Assembly: GCA_965208575.1 (NCBI GenBank)
Contig: CBDBOV010000002.1
Location: forward strand, 448,001-512,000
Length of the DNA: 64,000 nt
Origin: Spirochaetia bacterium
GTDB taxonomy: Bacteria > Spirochaetota > Spirochaetia > SZUA-6 > Bin103
Reading direction: 5' to 3'
Shown: positions 5,541 through 57,469 of the stretch, in pieces
Numbering within the stretch: the first letter of the stretch is position 1
Layout of the letters: each line of letters opens with the position of its first letter
Translations under genes and position numbers: made by a program
The notes under the pieces: generated by a model
What the model saw: only the letters and a program-made list of their open reading frames with translations
Database searches by the model: none
What the model was told of the DNA's origin: nothing

Positions 5541-6230
5541 ATGGCGCGCTCGGACGCGGCCGGCGGGGCGGGGGTGGCGCGACCTCACCGGCAAGCTGGT
5601 GTTCCCGGGCCCGGTAGCGTTGTGCCGCGCCGATGCGCCGGGAGCCTGGCGAGGCGGCCTGCCGGCGACCACCGTGGCCGTGCCGGTGGCGAGCCTCGGG
5701 CCGCCGGCGGGGCAGCCGCCGCCGGTGGACGCGGTGCCGGTGCCGCTGCTGCGGGGCGTGGCGGCGGAGCTGGAGGTGGTGCCGGATGCGGTGTTCGGGC
5801 GCGGTTGCGCGGCGTTCGCGGTCGACGACCGCATCCTGGGCGAAGCGGGCTTCGACGGCGACCTGGTGCGGGTGACCGGCCACTGCGGGGCGACGCTGGT
5901 GGTGCTGAGCGACGATGCGCGCACCATGGAGCGCAGCGTCGGGGGGTTGCCGCTGCCGCTGGACGGCGGCCGGGTGGTGCTGGCCCCGTCCAACGAGGCG
6001 GGCATGCGGGCGGCGCTGGAAGTGGCGTTGCGCAGCGGCGAGCCGGGCAGCGGCAGCGCGGTCGCGGCACCGGCGCACCTGCTGCTCGCCGAGCCGCAGG
6101 CCGCGGCGGAGTGGTGGCCGGCGGTGCGCGCCGGGACGATACGCATGGTGAGCGTGGAGGCCGATGACGGCGCCGCGGACGGTCCAGCTCCTGGCATACC
6201 TGTGGCGGGCCGAAGTGGCGGCCGGCAACA
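5541..6230 (+). pseudogene. Internal duplicate fragment of the amidohydrolase-like gene at 8407-9495
   Basis: Near-identical to 8503-9190; extra G near 5571; both ends missing. Confidence 0.85.
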
Positions 6231-8406: not shown

Positions 8407-9495
8407 GTGGGGGATACGCTGTATCAGGGGCTGTTGGTGCATGCCGACGGGCGGTTCGTAGCCGACCTGGAGATGGGCGGTGGCGTGGTGCGGGCGTTGC
8501 GCATGGCGCGCTCGGACGCGGCCGGCGGGGCGGGGTGGCGCGACCTCACCGGCAAGCTGGTGTTCCCGGGCCCGGTCGTGTTGAGCCGCTCCAATGCGCC
8601 GCGCGACTGGCGCGGCGGCCCGCCGGCCACCACCGTCGCCGTGCCGGTGGCGAGCCTCGGGCCGCCGGCGGGGCAGCCGCCGCCGGTGGATGCGGTGCCC
8701 GTTCCGCTGCTGCGGGGCGTGGCGGCAGAGCTGGAGGTGGTGCCGGATGCGGTGTTCGGGCGCGGCTGCGCGGCGTTCGCGGTCGACGACCGCATCCTGG
8801 GCGAAGCGGGCTTCGACGGCGACCTGGTGCGGGTGACCGGCCACTGCGGGGCGACGCTGGTGGTGCTGAGCGACGATGCGCGCACCATGGAGCGCAGCGT
8901 CGGCGGGCTGCCGCTGCCGCTGGACGGCGGCCGGGTGGTGCTGGCCCCGTCCAACGAAGCCGGCATGCGGGCGGCGCTGGAAGTGGCGCTGCGCAGCGGC
9001 GAGCCGGGCAGCGGTATCGCGGTGGCGGCGCCGACGCACCTGCTGCTCGCTGAGCCGAAGGCCGCGGCGGAGTGGTGGCCGGCGGTGCGCGCCGGGACGA
9101 TTCGCATGGTGAGCATCAAGGCCGGTGAGCAAACGGCGCACCGCCAACTCCTGGCATACCTGTGGCGGGCCGGAGTGGCGGCCGGCAACATCGCGCTCGA
9201 GGAGTTGGCGGCGCTGCTGTGCTGGCAGCCGGCGCGGCTGCTGGGCCTGCCGGCGAAGGGCCGCTTGCACCCCGGCTGCGACGCCGACTTGGCGGTGCTC
9301 GACCCGGAGCCGCCGGCACCCGGCAGCGGCGATGAAGGGGAGCGCGGATCAGGGCAGGCCGATGACGGCGGGATGGCGGCGGACGATGCCGAAGCAGTTC
9401 GCGGGGCCGTGGTGTGCATGCTGCGCGGCGGCGACGACGGGGCTGAAAAGGCGGGCCGCTGGATCCGCGCGACCCCGGTACGCGAGCCGCTGTAA
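8407..9495 (+). CDS. Degenerate cyclic amidohydrolase (dihydroorotase/hydantoinase-like) protein
   Basis: DLTGKLVFPG at the N-terminus and PARLLGLPAKGRLHPGCDADLAVLDP at the C-terminus; no HxH metal motif. Confidence 0.65.
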   Translation: MGDTLYQGLLVHADGRFVADLEMGGGVVRALRMARSDAAGGAGWRDLTGKLVFPGPVVLSRSNAPRDWRGGPPATTVAVPVASLGPPAGQPPPVDAVPVPLLRGVAAELEVVPDAVFGRGCAAFAVDDRILGEAGFDGDLVRVTGHCGATLVVLSDDARTMERSVGGLPLPLDGGRVVLAPSNEAGMRAALEVALRSGEPGSGIAVAAPTHLLLAEPKAAAEWWPAVRAGTIRMVSIKAGEQTAHRQLLAYLWRAGVAAGNIALEELAALLCWQPARLLGLPAKGRLHPGCDADLAVLDPEPPAPGSGDEGERGSGQADDGGMAADDAEAVRGAVVCMLRGGDDGAEKAGRWIRATPVREPL

Positions 9496-20221: not shown

Positions 20222-20512
20222 ATGGCCAGCATCGTTCCCATGGACCGAGAGGAGCTTCCCGCCGACTGCTACGTGTACAAGCACTCCACCGCTTGCCCGA
20301 TTTCGGCGGCGGCGGCGGCGGTCGTGCGCGACTACGTTTTTGACCGGCCGGTGTACTGGGTCAACGTGATCGAGCAGCGCCCGCTGTCCAACTGGGTCGC
20401 CGACGCTTACCGCGTGCGCCACCAGTCGCCGCAGCTCCTGAAGATCAGCGGCAGCCGCGTCGAGCGGCACTGGAGCCACTTCGACATCACCGCCGCCAAC
20501 CTGTCCTCCTGA
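20222..20512 (+). CDS. YtxJ/BrxC (DUF2847) thioredoxin-like protein
   Basis: KHSTACPIS, V.EQRPLSN, RHQSPQ, HWSHFDIT. Confidence 0.85.
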   Translation: MASIVPMDREELPADCYVYKHSTACPISAAAAAVVRDYVFDRPVYWVNVIEQRPLSNWVADAYRVRHQSPQLLKISGSRVERHWSHFDITAANLSS

Positions 20513-22181
20513 GAAACAACAATCAGGCGGCCTCCGGGACAAGCTCATAACCGAGTGCGTGTGCCTGCCTTCGGAGCCGGCGTTCAAAGCGGCGCCGGTC
20601 CTGGCGCTCCTCGGCGGCGAGGATGCTGTCATCGTAGGCCACGCGATGCGTGATCAGATGGTAGATGATCCGAGCCAGTTTATGCGCGACTGCAGTGGTC
20701 GCTTCGGGAGTACCCAGACGCGCCCGCATGCGGCGGAAGTGCTGGCCCAGGGCCGATGGGCTGCGGTACAACGACTGGGTCGCCCAGTGCAGCGCCTGGG
20801 CGGCCCGATTGGTGCCCCGACCGGTGTGCGAGCTGATGATCTTGCCGCCGGTGATCTGGTTGTGGGGGCACAGGTGCAGCCAGGAGGCGAATTGCGGTGC
20901 GGTCGGAAAGCGGGACAGTTCCGGGCCGAGTTCGGTGAACAGAACCAGCGCCGTACTTTCGCCGATGCCGGGAATCAGCGTCAGGTCAGTGCCGAACAGG
21001 TGCGTAAGGTGGCCGCGCAGGTCGAACCGCTTGGCCGGTGACTCGGTTGGCGCCTCGGGCTCCGCATCGATTCCCTCATCCGGTGGGTCGTCGCCCACCG
21101 CGCCGGGTGGCTCGCTGCTGGCTTCGAACGCGCGGATGCCGGCTTCGATTTCCTGATCGCACTCCGTGATGAGTTGTTGGTAGTGGGCATAGGTCGCTCG
21201 CGCGTGCCGCAACGCCAACAGGTGCTCGGCGCGCCAGTCGCCCTGCAGCGCCTTGATCAAGGTCTCGCGGCTGGCTTTGATCCGCCGGTCGGCCAGAGCG
21301 GCCAACCGCGCCGGATCCCGCTCACCCGCCAGGATAGCGTCCGTAATGGCCAGACCGGTCGTCCCCGTCAGGTCAGAGATGGCATGGTGCAGATGCACGT
21401 TCATCTGGCTGTACGCCTTCTGCATGTGCAACACGCTGCGCGACGCCATCTTGATCAAGGTGTCGCGATGGCGCAGCACCGAGCGCAGTGCACACACCTC
21501 GTCGGCAGGGCGGAATGAGCCGCGCAGCAATCCCACCGAGTGCAGGTAGCGCAACCACTCGCAGTCGGCCACGTCGGACTTCCGACCGGGTACCGAGTGC
21601 ACGTGACGCGCATTCACCAGCACCACGTCGAAGCCGTGTGCCTCCAGGATCTGATACACCGGAATCCAGTACACACCGGTGGACTCCATCGCCACCGTGG
21701 TGACCTCGCATTCCTTGAGCCAGTCGGCCAAGGCGTGCAGGTCCGCGGTGAACGTAGCAAAGTTCCGGATCGGGTCCGGGTCGCGCTCCGGGCGCACAGC
21801 CGCGTACACCTCGGTAGCGCCTATGTCCAAGCCGGCAGCGTCCGGGTGCATCACCTTTGGTTGCGCTGTGCGACTGCCCTTGCCCTTGCGTCTGTGTCTG
21901 CGTCGTGCCATGAAACCTCCGCTACGACTGAGTGGTGCGGCCAAGGCGTGTGTAGCAGGTATTCTCCTGAACGGGATGATCGCCACCCGGCCGCGCCGGC
22001 TGACAACCTCACCAATGACTACGCCACCCGCCCCGGGGCCAAGCTCTTGAACGGGTTCGCAGAACGTAACGCCAGTGACGCGCCGGCCTACTTTCGCGCT
22101 CCACCCAGAACTCTGCCCACACTATAGCTCACCCTTGTTTCTTTCATGACTGCGCCGGCCCAGGGGCCGGTGGGATAGCTC
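20506..22181 (-). mobile_element. IS110-family insertion sequence, copy 1 (1,676 bp including both GAG cores)
   Basis: Reverse-complement match to 45023-46698; same transposase translation; no long TIR or TSD. Confidence 0.93.
20523..21911 (-). CDS. IS110 DEDD transposase/recombinase
   Basis: AAGLDIG, VAMESTGVYW, KSDVAD, IPGIG, AVAHKLARIIY; GGAGG RBS before this ATG. Confidence 0.93.
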   Translation of the reverse strand: MARRRHRRKGKGSRTAQPKVMHPDAAGLDIGATEVYAAVRPERDPDPIRNFATFTADLHALADWLKECEVTTVAMESTGVYWIPVYQILEAHGFDVVLVNARHVHSVPGRKSDVADCEWLRYLHSVGLLRGSFRPADEVCALRSVLRHRDTLIKMASRSVLHMQKAYSQMNVHLHHAISDLTGTTGLAITDAILAGERDPARLAALADRRIKASRETLIKALQGDWRAEHLLALRHARATYAHYQQLITECDQEIEAGIRAFEASSEPPGAVGDDPPDEGIDAEPEAPTESPAKRFDLRGHLTHLFGTDLTLIPGIGESTALVLFTELGPELSRFPTAPQFASWLHLCPHNQITGGKIISSHTGRGTNRAAQALHWATQSLYRSPSALGQHFRRMRARLGTPEATTAVAHKLARIIYHLITHRVAYDDSILAAEERQDRRRFERRLRRQAHALGYELVPEAA

Positions 22182-44272: not shown

Positions 44273-45089
44273 AGCCGTGGAGTTGCCAGAATCGGTAGCA
44301 TGATCGGCAGCGGTGCTGATGCGGCTTGTGGTTCGGTTTCCCTTTTCGACGAACAGATCGGCATCCTGGACTCATGTCGGGGAACCGAGAAGGATGGCAA
44401 CGGACGTAGTATGCTCAGCCCTGCAACGTCCGGCGTACTTTTGCCTCGGTCTCACTATCCAGACGTGCGTTGGCCAGCATGGAAAGAAACCGGTCCCGGT
44501 CGACTTCCGGGGCTATCTTGGGTATGCCCGGGATCTCGATGTGCGTCGATCCGCCTTTCACCGAGAGCTTGTACTCGCCGGGGGCCAAGGTGATACGGGT
44601 ATGAACGCAGTCCCACTGGTGCAGATGAGCGAGCTCCAGCGCGGCGGCCCTCTCCCTCGCGCGCCAGTCAGCATCATCACCAAACAACTCTCGCAAAGGG
44701 ACAGGCATGGCGGGGGCGTCGCCGAGATCGAGCTCCGAGCCGGCTAGCCGATGGGCCAGTTGGGCCATGCGGTGAGATACCGCGGCGGAGAGGTACTGTG
44801 GCCCCCGGAGCCGGAGCGGAAGGTTGAGCCACCCGTCTCGTACACCGAATAGGATTGCCGCTGCCAGCCAATCCATCTCGCCGAGCCGGTCGCTGTAGTA
44901 GTCGAAGAGGTCTCCACAGTCTCGGTACAGGAAGAACAACGTCATGGCATGCGCAAGGGGAGTGTTGTGCCGTGCGAAGAGCTCGCTGGCCGTGGAGTCC
45001 GCGATGCCGCTCAGTGACTCAAGAGCTATCCCACCGGCCCCTGGGCCGGCGCAGTCATGAAAGAAACAAGGGTGAGCTATAGTGTGGGC

Positions 45090-45285
45090 AGAGTTCTGGG
45101 TGGAGCGCGAAAGTAGGCCGGCGCGTCACTGGCGTTACGTTCTGCGAACCCGTTCAAGAGCTTGGCCCCGGGGCGGGTGGCGTAGTCATTGGTGAGGTTG
45201 TCAGCCGGCGCGGCCGGGTGGCGATCATCCCGTTCAGGAGAATACCTGCTACACACGCCTTGGCCGCACCACTCAGTCGTAGCGG
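45090..45285 (+). ncRNA. Candidate IS110 bridge RNA (boundaries approximate; equivalent in copy 1 at about 21919-22114, minus strand)
   Basis: Non-coding left end with CCCGTTCAAGAG (45149-60) and CCCGTTCAGGAG (45229-40) in predicted stem-loops; TATAGT at 45078-83. Confidence 0.6.
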
Positions 45286-45292
45286 AGGTTTC

Positions 45293-46681
45293 ATGGCACG
45301 ACGCAGACACAGACGCAAGGGCAAGGGCAGTCGCACAGCGCAACCAAAGGTGATGCACCCGGACGCTGCCGGCTTGGACATAGGCGCTACCGAGGTGTAC
45401 GCGGCTGTGCGCCCGGAGCGCGACCCGGACCCGATCCGGAACTTTGCTACGTTCACCGCGGACCTGCACGCCTTGGCCGACTGGCTCAAGGAATGCGAGG
45501 TCACCACGGTGGCGATGGAGTCCACCGGTGTGTACTGGATTCCGGTGTATCAGATCCTGGAGGCACACGGCTTCGACGTGGTGCTGGTGAATGCGCGTCA
45601 CGTGCACTCGGTACCCGGTCGGAAGTCCGACGTGGCCGACTGCGAGTGGTTGCGCTACCTGCACTCGGTGGGATTGCTGCGCGGCTCATTCCGCCCTGCC
45701 GACGAGGTGTGTGCACTGCGCTCGGTGCTGCGCCATCGCGACACCTTGATCAAGATGGCGTCGCGCAGCGTGTTGCACATGCAGAAGGCGTACAGCCAGA
45801 TGAACGTGCATCTGCACCATGCCATCTCTGACCTGACGGGGACGACCGGTCTGGCCATTACGGACGCTATCCTGGCGGGTGAGCGGGATCCGGCGCGGTT
45901 GGCCGCTCTGGCCGACCGGCGGATCAAAGCCAGCCGCGAGACCTTGATCAAGGCGCTGCAGGGCGACTGGCGCGCCGAGCACCTGTTGGCGTTGCGGCAC
46001 GCGCGAGCGACCTATGCCCACTACCAACAACTCATCACGGAGTGCGATCAGGAAATCGAAGCCGGCATCCGCGCGTTCGAAGCCAGCAGCGAGCCACCCG
46101 GCGCGGTGGGCGACGACCCACCGGATGAGGGAATCGATGCGGAGCCCGAGGCGCCAACCGAGTCACCGGCCAAGCGGTTCGACCTGCGCGGCCACCTTAC
46201 GCACCTGTTCGGCACTGACCTGACGCTGATTCCCGGCATCGGCGAAAGTACGGCGCTGGTTCTGTTCACCGAACTCGGCCCGGAACTGTCCCGCTTTCCG
46301 ACCGCACCGCAATTCGCCTCCTGGCTGCACCTGTGCCCCCACAACCAGATCACCGGCGGCAAGATCATCAGCTCGCACACCGGTCGGGGCACCAATCGGG
46401 CCGCCCAGGCGCTGCACTGGGCGACCCAGTCGTTGTACCGCAGCCCATCGGCCCTGGGCCAGCACTTCCGCCGCATGCGGGCGCGTCTGGGTACTCCCGA
46501 AGCGACCACTGCAGTCGCGCATAAACTGGCTCGGATCATCTACCATCTGATCACGCATCGCGTGGCCTACGATGACAGCATCCTCGCCGCCGAGGAGCGC
46601 CAGGACCGGCGCCGCTTTGAACGCCGGCTCCGAAGGCAGGCACACGCACTCGGTTATGAGCTTGTCCCGGAGGCCGCCTGA
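45293..46681 (+). CDS. IS110 DEDD transposase/recombinase
   Basis: Translation identical to copy 1. Confidence 0.93.
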   Translation: MARRRHRRKGKGSRTAQPKVMHPDAAGLDIGATEVYAAVRPERDPDPIRNFATFTADLHALADWLKECEVTTVAMESTGVYWIPVYQILEAHGFDVVLVNARHVHSVPGRKSDVADCEWLRYLHSVGLLRGSFRPADEVCALRSVLRHRDTLIKMASRSVLHMQKAYSQMNVHLHHAISDLTGTTGLAITDAILAGERDPARLAALADRRIKASRETLIKALQGDWRAEHLLALRHARATYAHYQQLITECDQEIEAGIRAFEASSEPPGAVGDDPPDEGIDAEPEAPTESPAKRFDLRGHLTHLFGTDLTLIPGIGESTALVLFTELGPELSRFPTAPQFASWLHLCPHNQITGGKIISSHTGRGTNRAAQALHWATQSLYRSPSALGQHFRRMRARLGTPEATTAVAHKLARIIYHLITHRVAYDDSILAAEERQDRRRFERRLRRQAHALGYELVPEAA

Positions 46682-47674
46682 TTGTTGTTTCTCAGGAGTG
46701 TCCTGCAGCTTCCTGACGCCCGCCTGCACCCGCGGGTCCAGGGTCGCCGAGGTCTCAGCCAAGTAGTCGAGCAGCACAGTCTCGGGGTTCTTGGCGTTGC
46801 CCGCCTCGCGCCACTTCGCAAGCCGCTCTACGGCTCCCCAGAAGAGGGCTCCCTGATAGGCGTTCTGCAAACTCGTCCGGTCCGTCTCGGGGTCGCGAGA
46901 AGCCAGAAGCGTCGCGGTTCCTTCCCGCATCCAGGGTTCAAGCCCGGCGAGTATCGCGCCGTCATCCGCCGGCACCGGGGAGACGCCCGGCTCGAATGCA
47001 GTCCGGCACGCTCGAACCGCCTGGTCGCCGAGGTTGCCGAAGAGAAACAGCATCGCCGTGACAGCGCCCGCGGCGAGCGGGCGTTCAAGTGGTACGCTCC
47101 GTTCGCGGGGACCATTCTCGGGCGGCCACTCCGTATCACCACCCCTGGCGAACAGCGCCTTCTTCGTCGCGTCCCTCCTGAAGTCCCCCAGAGGAACGTT
47201 GCCGAAGTCCTTCGCGCTCCTCTCGCACACCAGCCTGTCGTCGCGTGACTGGAAAAGAATCGACTCGATCCGGGACGTGGGGAGCGGCGCGGGTACCAGG
47301 AACACCCACTCGGTCCCGTCGACCTCGTGCGGAAACTGGATCTCCCTCAGGCCACCTTGCCCCACAGCAGCTACTCTGCCCGACAACCCGGTGAGGCCGA
47401 TTCGCACAATGACCGGCATGAGGTGTCCCTCCTGCGTGGCCGACTCGACCGCTGTTGCAGGCGCTTGGTCGACGAACAGGGGTATCCAGCCTGGAAAGCA
47501 CTCCAGCGAGTCGCGATAGTACTTCTCGCCAAACCCGGAGGGCGGCATCACCAGACCGGCCGCGAGCATGTACATCAGGTTGAGGTGATTGGTCACCAGG
47601 AGCGCCGATTTGGGCGCTGGAACTTCCTCCTTGGCATCGGACTTGATCAACATCAACTGGTCAGAGTCGGCCAC

Positions 47675-54643: not shown

Positions 54644-57469
54644 ATGACAAACATGACCGGCGGGACCGCCAGACGACCCTTCAGCTCACTCGGCGATCAG
54701 CAGCTCCTGGAGCAGACCCGGCGCCTGGCGGCCAACCAGCGCGGCCTCGAAGTGCACATCCTGGACCATCTCGACGAGATCGACCGGCGTGGGCTGGCGC
54801 TGCGGCGCGGGTTCTCGAGCCTGTTCGACTACGCGGTGCGGGAGTTGCGGTTCACCGATGCGGCCGCGCAACGGCGTATTCAGACCATGAGGTTGTGCCG
54901 GCGGCATGGCTGGGTGCGGGCCATGCTGCACAGCGGCGAGTTGAGTGTGACGTCGGCGGCGCAGTTGGAGACCGCGTTTGGCGCCGCCGAGCGCCAGTGC
55001 CGGAGAGCGAGCGCGCCCGTCGATCAGGAGCGCTGCCAAGCTCTGCATGGGCTGCCTGCGGTGCCGAGCGGAGCGGGAGATCAGGATGCCGAAGCGTCGG
55101 GAGCGGGGATGGCCGGTGCCGCGGCGGTGGCGGCATCGGCGCCGCCCGGCGTGGCCGCCGTCGCCCAGGAGCTCGGTGACGCCAGAGGCTGCGGGGCCCG
55201 GCATACCGGGAGTGACGGCTGCAGGCGACTGTCGGTCGAGCCGGAGGTGCGGTCGCTCGATGACGCCGGAAGCCGCGAGGAGCGGCATGCAGAGCGCGAC
55301 CGTTGCAGGCGATCGTCGGCCGACTCGGAGGCGCAGTCGCTCGGTGACGCCGGCGGCCGCGGGGACCGGCATACCGAGAGCGACCGTTGCAGACCATCGT
55401 CGGACGGCTTGGCGGCGCAGTCGTCCCGTGGCGTCGGGGGCCGCGAGGACCGGTATGACGGGAACGACGGCTGCAGACGGCTGTCGGCCGGGCCGGAGGC
55501 GCGGTCGCTCGGTGACGCCGGCGGCCGCGAGGAGCGGGATGCCGAGAGCGACCGTTGCAGGCGATCGTCGGACGGCTCGGCGGCGGTCGGTGCCCGCCCG
55601 GCAGCGGCGGGTGCGCAGCCGGTGGGCCGATGGGACTCGAGTGCGGCCACCTCGGGCGCTGCACCGGCTTCGACGGCCGCCACGCTGCACGCGCCGCCGC
55701 CTGCGGCGCCGGGGCGTGTACCGCGGCCCGGGCTCACGGGTACTGAGGCCGCGACCACGCCGGTGGTGCCGGTGACGAGCCACGCGGCTGCGCAGCACCG
55801 CGGCGCCCGGCATGGCGATGCGCTGCCGGCGCGCCGGGAGTCGAGCGGAGCCGCCGGGCACTCTCCGGCACCGTTGCGCGCTTCCGGTGCCGCCGTGGCC
55901 TCCTCGGACCAGGGCCCGGCGGCGCCACTGCTGCCGCCGGCGAGGGGCGCCGAGCCGGGACCGTTGCCGGTCGTGGCCCCATCGGAGCCGCGGCTCACCG
56001 CTGCGCTCGCACCGGCGCCGTCGCGGGGTGATCGGAACCCGGAACCGTGTTCCGACCCGGAACTGCGGTCCGGCCCGGAGCGGTCCGCCGGGCCGGTGTC
56101 CGCCGCCGCGCTGCTGCACCCGCGGCGGCAGCGCGAGCTGATCGAGCAGGCCGCCGGCATGACCACGCGCCAGGTCGCCGGCCTGCTGGCCAGTGCCGCT
56201 CCGCAGGTGGCGCCGCCGCGCGACACGCTGCGTGCGGTGGCGCCGGACCGCTACACGTTGAAGGTGAGCATCGACCAGGAGTGCGAGCAGGGACTGCGCC
56301 ACCTGAAGGACCTGCGGTCGCACGTCGACCCGCGCATGTCGTGGGGAGACCTGGTGGCGCGCCTGGTGCGCGAGGCGGTGGCGCGGCACGACCCGCGCGG
56401 CGGCGGTGGCAGGCGGGGGCGTACGGGCGGCACGGCAGCATCGTCGCGGCGGGAGCGGACCGGCACACCCTCGGTCGTGGCGGCGGCCGCGGCCGGCGGG
56501 GAGCAGCCGCGGGCCGCGACGATCCGCAACGCTGCCGGGGTGCGCGGCGTTGCGCCCGCCGCCCCGACGGGCGGTGCAAGGTCGGTTGGCGCCCGCGCAG
56601 GTGCCGCTGTTTCGGCCCCGCCCGCCGTTACAGCGGCGCCGGAGGGTCGGAGCGCCGGCGGCGGCCCCGCCCACGGCACTGGTGCGACGCGGATCCCGCG
56701 GGCCACGACTGCGCCGCCGAGGTTGGCCAGCGGCGGGCCCGCCGGCGGCGCTGATGCCACGGGGATCCGGCGGGCCACGAGTGCGGCGCCGAAGTTGGTC
56801 AGCGGCGGCTCTGCCGACGGTGCAGATGCGACGCCGATCCGATCGGCAACGACTGCGGCGCCGGAGTTGGTCAGCGGCGGCTCTGCCGACGGTGCAGATG
56901 CGACGCCGATCCGGTCGGCAACGACTGCGGCGCCGGAGTTGGTCAGCGGCGGCTCTGCCGACGGTGCAGATGCGACGCCGATCCGGTCGGCAACGACTGC
57001 GGCGCCGGAGTTGGCCAGCGGCGGCTCTGCCGACGGTGCAGATGCGACGCCGATCCGATCGGCAACGACTGCGGCGCCGAGGTTGGTCAGCGGCGACCCC
57101 GCCGACGACGCTGGTGCCACGCGGATCCCGCGGGCAACGACTGCGGCGCCGAAGTTGGCCGGCGGCGTGCCGCCTGCGCGTGGTGCGGGCGGCACGCCGG
57201 GGAGAGCATCGCCGCAGTGCACCCGCGATGCTCCGCTCGGCCCGCGCCGGTCGCCGCCGCGGCGCACCATTCCGGCGGCTGTCCGGCGTTACGTCTGGCT
57301 GCGCGACGGGGGGCGCTGCCGCTATCGGGATCCGCTCACCGGTCGCCGCTGCAATTCGTCTCACCTGCTACAGATCCACCACCTGCTGCCAGTTGCCGAG
57401 GGGGGCGGCCCGGAGCCGGAGAACCTGGTTCTCGCGTGCCTGGCGCACCACCGCATGTGTCACGCCTAA
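54644..57469 (+). CDS. HNH endonuclease-domain protein with DUF222-like N-terminus and repeat linkers
   Basis: HLDEIDRR...GFSSLFDYAVREL; C-terminal VWLRDGGRC...C...IHH...GG...NL...C..HH. Confidence 0.8.
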   Translation: MTNMTGGTARRPFSSLGDQQLLEQTRRLAANQRGLEVHILDHLDEIDRRGLALRRGFSSLFDYAVRELRFTDAAAQRRIQTMRLCRRHGWVRAMLHSGELSVTSAAQLETAFGAAERQCRRASAPVDQERCQALHGLPAVPSGAGDQDAEASGAGMAGAAAVAASAPPGVAAVAQELGDARGCGARHTGSDGCRRLSVEPEVRSLDDAGSREERHAERDRCRRSSADSEAQSLGDAGGRGDRHTESDRCRPSSDGLAAQSSRGVGGREDRYDGNDGCRRLSAGPEARSLGDAGGREERDAESDRCRRSSDGSAAVGARPAAAGAQPVGRWDSSAATSGAAPASTAATLHAPPPAAPGRVPRPGLTGTEAATTPVVPVTSHAAAQHRGARHGDALPARRESSGAAGHSPAPLRASGAAVASSDQGPAAPLLPPARGAEPGPLPVVAPSEPRLTAALAPAPSRGDRNPEPCSDPELRSGPERSAGPVSAAALLHPRRQRELIEQAAGMTTRQVAGLLASAAPQVAPPRDTLRAVAPDRYTLKVSIDQECEQGLRHLKDLRSHVDPRMSWGDLVARLVREAVARHDPRGGGGRRGRTGGTAASSRRERTGTPSVVAAAAAGGEQPRAATIRNAAGVRGVAPAAPTGGARSVGARAGAAVSAPPAVTAAPEGRSAGGGPAHGTGATRIPRATTAPPRLASGGPAGGADATGIRRATSAAPKLVSGGSADGADATPIRSATTAAPELVSGGSADGADATPIRSATTAAPELVSGGSADGADATPIRSATTAAPELASGGSADGADATPIRSATTAAPRLVSGDPADDAGATRIPRATTAAPKLAGGVPPARGAGGTPGRASPQCTRDAPLGPRRSPPRRTIPAAVRRYVWLRDGGRCRYRDPLTGRRCNSSHLLQIHHLLPVAEGGGPEPENLVLACLAHHRMCHA
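55172..55580 (+). repeat. 84-nt (28-aa) coding tandem repeat, about 5 units
   Basis: Units start at 55172, 55256, 55340, 55424, 55508 (LGDAGGREERxxESDRCRRSS..). Confidence 0.85.
56681..57165 (+). repeat. 72-nt (24-aa) coding tandem repeat, about 6.5 units
   Basis: ATTAAPELVSGGSADGADATPIRS; central units nearly identical. Confidence 0.92.

Follow-up and report, generated by a model that had tools for sequence, protein, structure and literature searches.

A candidate bridge RNA with an apparently reversed guide order in the left end of an IS110-family element from a Spirochaetia bacterium

In the IS110 family of insertion sequences (ISs), two studies of IS621 describe a bridge RNA that is encoded in the left end of the element, upstream of a recombinase with DEDD and Tnp domains (PMC11208160, PMC11208158). 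This RNA forms two stem-loops with internal loops, a target loop followed by a donor loop, which have a 2-nucleotide (nt) core in common; left of the core, the bottom strand is paired by one guide, right of it the top strand by another, and a dinucleotide beside the guide matches the non-cognate partner (the handshake). The elements of the IS621 RNA follow one another as a stem, the left target guide (LTG, positions 50-58), a stem loop, the right target guide (RTG, 77-80) and the handshake guide (81-82) (PMC11208158). In the core of IS621, the T is almost invariant and the first base is less conserved. The window analyzed here, a stretch of 64,000 nt from a Spirochaetia bacterium (assembly GCA_965208575.1, contig CBDBOV010000002.1, positions 448,001 to 512,000), carries two copies of an IS110-family element whose left end shares these features of IS621, as found or predicted. 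Compared to IS621, the order of the guides within each loop appears to be reversed, and the element seems to choose its targets by the left side only. The probability of this explanation as a whole was put at about 0.8.

A repeat search of the window returned arms of 1689 nt for the two copies, A and B. Each copy consists of a non-coding left end of 267 nt, a gene of 462 codons' worth of protein (462 amino acids) and a further 17 nt past the stop codon. The source genome (6.50 Mb, 6 contigs) contains 15 full copies, identical or nearly so, and the element is an active IS110-family insertion sequence. The left joint of copies A and B reads ...CTCAAGAG/CTATCC (a slash marks the joint here and below), and the right joint reads ...TTTCTCAGGAG/ and is followed by unrelated flanks (TGTCC and GACAG); the right ends of all copies likewise read ...TTTCTCAGGAG before running into unrelated sequence. 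Each of the 14 independent left flanks terminates in nTCAAGAG, where n is C in 11, G in 2 and A in 1. The remaining copy, the fifteenth, is the latter of two arranged head to tail (contig C4, 1265899-1269244), with one AG common to both units. The joint of this pair, TTTCTCAGGAG/CTATCC, is identical to the predicted circle junction and is thus physically present in the chromosome, so a polymerase chain reaction designed for the circle would amplify the chromosomal joint too.

Further evidence on the joints came from a genome of the same genus (G006), which has an empty site reading ...GACTCAAGAG/TGTCC..., or in longer form ...GTGACTCAAGAG/TGTCCTGCAGC..., with 95% identity across the 326-nt left flank. 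Because this site is uninterrupted, CTCAAGAG is derived from the target, and the point of crossover falls within the shared AG or next to it. A search of the same genome with the flank of copy B gave partial matches only, of 62-120 nt. The core was taken to be a dinucleotide because relatives have AG alone in common between their joints; in the L025 group, for example, the left joint reads ...ATA-AG/CGTGC and the right joint ...GGG-AG/TCGGC.

An earlier interpretation made from the letters alone, called here the sequence-only reading, had pointed to two motifs in the left end, CCCGTTCAAGAG at 45149-45160 and CCCGTTCAGGAG at 45229-45240, whose starts are 80 nt apart. It proposed that the first matches the reconstructed target and the second the predicted circle junction, so that the two would be the left target guide and the left donor guide (LDG). 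The positions and the spacing proved correct in both copies, and the common pattern CCCGTTCARGAG has four occurrences in the window, two in each copy, where 100 shuffles predict 0.02. The match of the first motif to the target was borne out by all 14 independent flanks and by the empty site in G006, and that of the second by the tandem joint on contig C4. No independent insertion lacking TCAAGAG was found. The letters of the 3′ strand that holds the LTG are those of the target's top strand, and the letters of the corresponding strand that holds the LDG are those of the right end of the element.

The assignment of both guides was supported by homologues, which were collected from species-representative genomes. 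A first protein search gave 52 loci; a profile search then matched 562 stretches, 558 of which were confirmed, and the best 80 were retained. When the zone 55-130 nt upstream of the RNA was searched, 50 of 85 elements had an exact copy of their own LTG 7-mer in the left flank and 71 of 85 a copy with at most one mismatch, compared to exact matches in 0.5% of 7,496 non-cognate combinations. The 7-mer of the LDG, searched near the stop codon, matched the element's own right end exactly in 71 of 81 cases (non-cognate, 1.1% of 6,687). The core letters of the two loops were AG in both loops in 81 elements, AA in both in 9 and never mixed (n = 90), in line with the earlier proposal of an AG core. 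Guides that follow their own flanks and ends, together with core letters that always agree, are what an LTG, an LDG and a common core would show. In 50 of 71 elements, the dinucleotide directly 3′ of the LTG is identical to the one with which the element begins; at least 10 types of dinucleotide are involved, and the z-scores against shuffles are 7.7 and 7.9. The corresponding agreement of the bases 3′ of the LDG with the right flank is weaker (both bases in 13 of 72, the first base in 35 of 72). The sequence-only reading had also remarked that the two guides differ at one base, which is true, and had called this unusual, which it is not: a distance of at most one was found in 5 of 77 elements compared to 7.1% of non-cognate pairs.

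A consensus fold supported by compensatory changes was derived from an alignment of 19 left ends, and a covariance model (R1) was built on it. With this model, 93 of 96 sources were found to have the RNA upstream of the gene. Among 94 distinct sequences, 97.0% of the paired cells in the structure were filled by pairs, compared to 80.8% in shuffles and 36-45% when the partners were slid, and changes on both sides were seen in 20 of 23 pairs, distributed over four covarying helices. G-U pairs were present in 88 to 94 of the 94 sequences at three pairs and in 33 and 29 of them at two further pairs. Since G-U pairs of this abundance would be C-A on the opposite strand, the plus strand is the folded one. 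The architecture consists of two adjacent stem-loops, each with an internal loop, the target loop preceding the donor loop as had been supposed. From 5′ to 3′, each loop is made up of the closing helix, a 5′ strand ending in CA, an upper helix (YUGGUG...CCCG) with a variable hairpin, one base, an 8-nt 3′ strand and the closing helix again. When the guides were kept single-stranded, the RNA of the window folded into exactly the comparative structure, at -58.0 kcal/mol. The two motifs had been placed inside predictable stems; in the comparative structure, CCCG alone is helical, as the 3′ strand of the upper helix, and the variable 8 nt form the single-stranded 3′ strand of the internal loop. The predicted bridge RNA would probably be at least about 148 nt long (45116-45263). 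The left end very probably makes a guide RNA that reads the insertion site and the element's own ends, as in known IS110 elements; production of the RNA, binding by the recombinase and IS621-like pairing with DNA would follow by analogy.

The right-hand guides had been left unplaced by the sequence-only reading. For the target loop they can now be placed by covariation in the family: among the 67 elements whose right joint is exact, 19 showed pairing of the 5′ strand with their own right flank over at least 5 contiguous positions, starting at the C opposite the core G, compared to 2.0% of non-cognate combinations, with enrichment at register 0 alone. The alignment columns of the 5′ strand formed an antiparallel ladder to positions +1 to +5 of the right target (z 2.8-4.9), and the cases came from at least 12 lineages beyond the L025 group. 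With the right target guide on the 5′ strand and the left guides on the 3′ strand, the top-strand guide comes first and the bottom-strand guide second. For the donor loop the family tests were negative, and there the right-hand guide has a candidate position only. As a separate candidate, the sequence GCCGGU after the donor loop of the L025 group was considered as a right guide downstream of the LTG and rejected by eye for the 5′ position, being constant while the right flank varies.

In the present element the right target guide predicts ACGCGC right of the core, and none of the 15 right flanks (14 of them independent) pairs with it past three positions. The proposal of one-sided recognition, made earlier from the two copies in the window, thus stood for this element. 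The genome contains 346 TCAAGAG sites, made up of 14 occupied sites, 15 in the element's own guide-coding DNA and 317 free ones, and C at position -8 was found at 11 of the 14 occupied sites compared to 93 of the 317 free sites. Similar behavior was seen in the sister variant in genome G020, which has the same 5′ guide: its left flanks were exact in 6 of 7 cases and its right flanks were unrelated. The variant in genome G003, with a different 5′ guide, showed partial right-flank matches in 2-3 of 5 copies. A one-sided left reading fits the presence of 15 copies at unrelated loci, and the tandem pair may be explained in the same way, because the left joint retains the full left target and can be targeted again.

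A different reading accepts the same RNA and supposes two-sided recognition, with a very short Y-G contact at +1/+2 in a register displaced by one position, plus additional contacts at -11, -13 and -15. It is in keeping with a weak enrichment of YG at +1/+2 (9 of the 15 right flanks and 8 of the 14 independent ones, compared to 70 of 317 free sites; Fisher p 0.0023 on 15) and with further preferences on the left among the 14 flanks, namely T at -11 (8 of 14 compared to 15%), A at -13 (11 of 14 compared to 31%) and T at -15 (7 of 14 compared to 13%). These left preferences have p values of 4e-4 to 1e-3, uncorrected for 80 tests and from a small sample, and no RNA partner was found for them. Two-sided recognition would also suit the low occupancy of TCAAGAG sites outside the element, 14 of 331. 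However, the YG register is not the one supported by the family, in which shift 0 alone is enriched; the sample is small; and low occupancy can equally be explained by selection against insertions in essential genes. Moreover, the sole TCAAGAG site fully complementary to the 5′ guide, on contig C3 near 192867 (minus strand), is unoccupied, and it has G rather than C at -8. Two-sided recognition was considered unlikely, if the most credible of the alternatives. One-sided recognition is supported as the best description of this element, with neighboring bases possibly contributing slightly.

If the bridge RNA acts as proposed, the first loop would read the target and the second loop the element's own joined ends. 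The 3′ strand of each loop would carry a guide of 7 nt with the AG core, which has the letters of the top strand and pairs with the bottom strand; UCAAG-AG would read the target and UCAGG-AG the element's right end. On the target loop's 5′ strand would be the short guide of the family, which complements the top strand on the right of the crossover. In this element, the choice of insertion site would depend almost entirely on the core and about 8 bases to the left of the crossover, and GCGCGUC would be without a partner. The arrangement may be described as the IS621 layout viewed from the other DNA strand, in which AG is the reverse complement of CT and AA that of TT. In this opposite-strand frame, the 5′ guide would pair with the bottom strand on the left and the 3′ guide with the top strand on the right, as in IS621; the invariant A would correspond to the near-invariant T of IS621 and the variable second base to its first base. 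The genes point the other way relative to the crossover site because the IS621 layout is seen from the opposite strand. The same frame leads to the expectation that the 3′ guide is followed by two handshake bases matching the other DNA partner, and this expectation is borne out by the 50 of 71 elements mentioned above. We infer an IS621-like bridge RNA with its crossover site turned round relative to the genes and with the long guide on the 3′ side.

The standard IS621 layout, in which the motifs would be 5′-side guides with the right-hand guides downstream of each, has precedent on its side, since published IS621, ISEc21 and ISPpu10 RNAs have the bottom-strand guide first. It is nevertheless very improbable here: the covarying helices put each motif on the 3′ side of the loop, immediately before the 3′ strand of the closing helix; the columns that covary with the right flank all lie 5′ of the upper helix; and in the L025 group no right-flank match was seen by eye 3′ of the LTG.

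Several observations weigh against a bridge RNA of reversed guide order and have to be set beside the evidence in its favor. First, some of the counts are biased. The alignment was fitted to the model, so the pair counts lean toward the structure, and the homologues are related to one another, so the counts exaggerate independence; in the ladder scan the rows were picked by left-guide matches, which renders its left-guide z-scores circular and leaves the guide and flank counts as the unbiased test. Second, single-sequence folding of the 270-nt and 165-nt stretches did not rise above shuffles (z -0.61 and -0.21), the minimum-energy fold of the single sequence was without the comparative target loop, and an Rfam scan of 44700-47000 gave zero matches at E values up to 10. 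Third, a consensus scan of the left end and the tandem joint found no sigma-70-like promoter, and RNA contigs from runs X15 and X16 cover parts of the gene only, at 95-99% likeness, leaving the left end uncovered; the raw-read RNA runs X23 and X24 yielded zero reads and so carry no weight either way. Fourth, 33 of 67 elements have at most two pairs between the right target guide and their own right flank. For the right donor guide, the longest complementary run in the family averaged 4.34 for own compared to 4.44 for non-cognate combinations, core-anchored runs of at least 5 occurred in 15 of 70 elements compared to 13.5% of non-cognate combinations, and a column scan across the family gave no clean ladder.

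The negative promoter scan, the RNA contigs that leave the left end uncovered, and the fact that covariation of guides with flanks cannot by itself separate DNA from RNA, would also suit motifs that act as DNA, as internal target-like or end-like copies bound by the recombinase or engaged in DNA-DNA pairing, but this is scarcely plausible, given four helices with compensatory changes and abundant G-U pairs, which argue for one single-stranded strand under selection, and a protein from a family whose RNA guidance has been shown experimentally. The coordinates of the features assigned to the bridge RNA and to the rest of the element are collected in Table 1.

Table 1. Features of the element in the window (positions are those of the window; the roles of guides and helices are predicted)
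Feature	Position	Strand	Evidence or remark
IS copy A, 1673 bp	45026-46698	+	AG core at both joints (45024-45025, 46697-46698), boundary drawable with either; empty site
IS copy B	20506-22178	-	inverted, identical to copy A
Left target and core at copy A, CTCAAG-AG	45018-45025	+	14/14 independent flanks; empty site
Right donor, first element bases, CTATCCCACC	45026-45035	+	direct sequence reading
Hairpin near left tip, CCGGCCC-CT-GGGCCGG, perfect 7 bp	45034-45049	+	by eye; homologues have a different-sequence hairpin in the same place
Subterminal inverted repeat, inner copy, AGAAACAA, 36 nt inside left end	45062-45069	+	family test
TATAGT, -10-like hexamer, without detected -35	45078-45083	+	TAnnnT-like words in same homologue column, by eye
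P1 5′ strand, target-loop closing helix, GGCCGG	45116-45121	+	comparative model, constrained fold
Right target guide position, GCGCGUC, target-loop 5′ side	45121-45127	+	family covariation; no matching right flank for this element
P2, target-loop upper helix and hairpin, UGGCGU...ACCCG	45130-45152	+	comparative model, constrained fold
Left target guide (LTG), U-UCAAG-AG, target-loop 3′ side	45153-45160	+	own insertions, homologues, empty site
Handshake-like CU, equal to first two element bases CT (45026-45027)	45161-45162	+	50/71 elements
P1 3′ strand, UUGGCC	45162-45167	+	comparative model, constrained fold
P3 5′ strand, donor-loop closing helix, CCGGGGCG	45168-45175	+	comparative model, constrained fold
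Right donor guide candidate, two registers: GGGUGGC with G/CTATCC or GGUGGCGUAGU with G/CTATCCCACC	45175-45186	+	sequence reading
P4, donor-loop upper helix and hairpin, UGGUGAGG...GAUCAUCCCG	45190-45232	+	comparative model, folding
Left donor guide (LDG), U-UCAGG-AG, donor-loop 3′ side	45233-45240	+	own right end, homologues
P3 3′ strand, CGCCUUGG	45256-45263	+	comparative model, constrained fold
Recombinase gene, 462 aa (amino acids), DEDD and Transposase_20 domains	45293-46681	+	Pfam, NCBIfam, PDB comparison
Subterminal inverted repeat, outer copy, TTGTTTCT, overlaps left donor start	46685-46692	+	family test
Left donor and core, CTCAGG-AG	46691-46698	+	sequence; homologue guide matches

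By its domains, the product of the gene belongs to the family. It matched PF01548 (N-terminal DEDD, RuvC-like) over residues 26-166 (E 6.4e-20) and PF02371 (C-terminal Tnp domain) over residues 310-385 (E 1.5e-11), and the NCBIfam model NF033542, 'IS110 family RNA-guided transposase', gave 251 bits against a cut-off of 140. Its sole relative in PDB is the IS621 transposase, a distant one (E 1.3e-7), with which the C-terminal domain aligns at chain residues 200-321. The window protein has T354-G355 (codon of T354, 46352-46354) where most homologues have S-G (consensus ISGG), and a hand count on the alignment puts T354 opposite the catalytic Ser of IS621. The protein thus has Thr in place of the motif Ser, yet the element is present in 15 identical copies. 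An IS110 subgroup with proteins of 395-455 amino acids is named in PMC11187229; the length of 462 amino acids was judged to fit this subgroup and lies outside the 330-350 quoted for IS1111. A search of the text-searchable literature, with figures and supplements outside its scope, found no described RNA for the subgroup.

The subterminal inverted repeat also covaries in the family, a common word of at least 7 nt being found in 50 of 62 elements compared to 26% of non-cognate combinations. The 8-bp repeat could form an RNA helix in a transcript that spans the junction.

Side observations were made on the insertions and on the window. On contig C2 (51407-53790), a 3′ fragment of the element, some 300 bp long, lies about 390 bp downstream of a full copy, and about 290 bp of the same right flank is repeated there at 97.6% identity, which resembles a local duplication of the 3′ end and its flank. 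In locus L022 (1170-1215), the closest homologue (69% identity) immediately follows what is left of the target loop of another element, a piece of guide-coding DNA that imitates a target. The window further contains two tandem arrays unrelated to the element, at 55163-55585 (period 84 nt, 4 copies) and 56586-57233 (period 72 nt, 7 copies), and a direct repeat of 300 nt with 94% identity at 5566-5865 and 8527-8826, the two units being 2961 nt apart.

Compared to IS621, the element differs in several respects. First, the order of the guides in the loops is reversed, and it is the 3′ side that has the bottom-strand guide, which is the long one, together with the handshake-like bases. Second, the core is AG or AA rather than CT, while the opposite strand reads CT or TT with the invariant base correspondingly placed. 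Third, the recombinase has 462 amino acids compared to 326, and the match to IS621 is the distant one given above. Fourth, the element has an 8-bp subterminal inverted repeat, and no junction promoter was detected by the consensus scan.

Other described systems share some of these features. In the IS1111 seekRNAs of ISEc11, ISPa11 and ISKpn4, as described in PMC11187229, the complement of the top strand lies 5′ of the bottom-strand match, which is the order proposed here for the target loop, and IS1111 elements also have subterminal inverted repeats (7-17 bp there, 8 bp here) and an S/T-G motif (here T354-G355). They differ in that their non-coding region lies downstream of the gene, whereas here 267 nt lie upstream and 17 nt downstream; in that their transposases are shorter, by the lengths quoted above from the same source; and in that their repeats are near-terminal, whereas the inner copy here lies 36 nt inside the left end. 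The seekRNA of ISEc21 (PMC11187229) and the bridge RNA of ISPpu10 (bioRxiv 10.64898/2026.03.19.712850) have an upstream non-coding region and RNA-guided targets in common with this element, but both follow the IS621 guide order; the core of ISPpu10, moreover, is CT, and its right guide is required at almost all positions, whereas the right guide appears to be unused here. Half-match recombination by IS621 (bioRxiv 10.64898/2026.08.31.748434) shows that a half-matching substrate suffices, which parallels the left-only match; there it explains excision and off-targets, whereas for the present element it would be the way in which insertion ordinarily proceeds. The literature search brought up no text on an upstream RNA in which the top-strand guide precedes the other, and figures or supplements (Durrant 2024 Fig. 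6d, Extended Data Fig. 10c, Supplementary Data) may show one.

Members of the clade are carried on enterobacterial plasmids, and relatives exist in Streptomyces, Mycobacterium and Rhodococcus. A copy on a Citrobacter plasmid has 45.9% identity and an RNA score of 41.8 bits. Three plasmid loci with 30-32% protein identity, L192 (M. avium), L193 (Streptomyces) and L194 (Rhodococcus), carry, upstream of the gene, a module that resembles a target loop. In each of them the left flank contains the 3′ strand of this first loop together with the two bases that follow it (7/7 + 2, 8/8 + 2 and 6/7 + 2, respectively), and the covariance model did not match a second loop in them. In an Enterococcus relative with 26% identity, the covariance model gave no match.

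The kind of system found here is already known, the family model itself being named 'RNA-guided', and it is the arrangement that appears to be new. The apparently new features are an upstream RNA with IS1111-like order, the AG core, handshake-like bases on the 3′ side and, in this element, left-only targeting. The chances seem evenly balanced that the recombinases of about 420-460 amino acids form a very large IS110-family clade, with at least 558 stretches in species-representative genomes, not previously described in such terms. Its left-end bridge RNA would keep the chemistry of IS621 around a crossover site reversed relative to the genes, with an AG core and with long guide and handshake bases on the 3′ side. 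This would be a third natural configuration beside IS621/ISEc21 and IS1111, and the present element would be a case of half-match insertion in nature, reading one side of its target.

The search for programmable tools of DNA insertion now includes the mining of bridge recombinases, for which design rules have so far been taken from IS621-like RNAs. If the interpretation given here is true, a clade of reversed polarity needs its own rules for assigning guides, as the rules of IS621 would mislabel its guides or could miss them, and the clade would be a natural test of which RNA features set the order of strand exchange. How loose the specificity of a natural system can be is seen in the spread of an element by a left match of about 8 nt and the core, and this bears on the risk of off-target insertion. 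For the organism itself, the finding would explain the 15 identical copies that interrupt unrelated loci in its genome.

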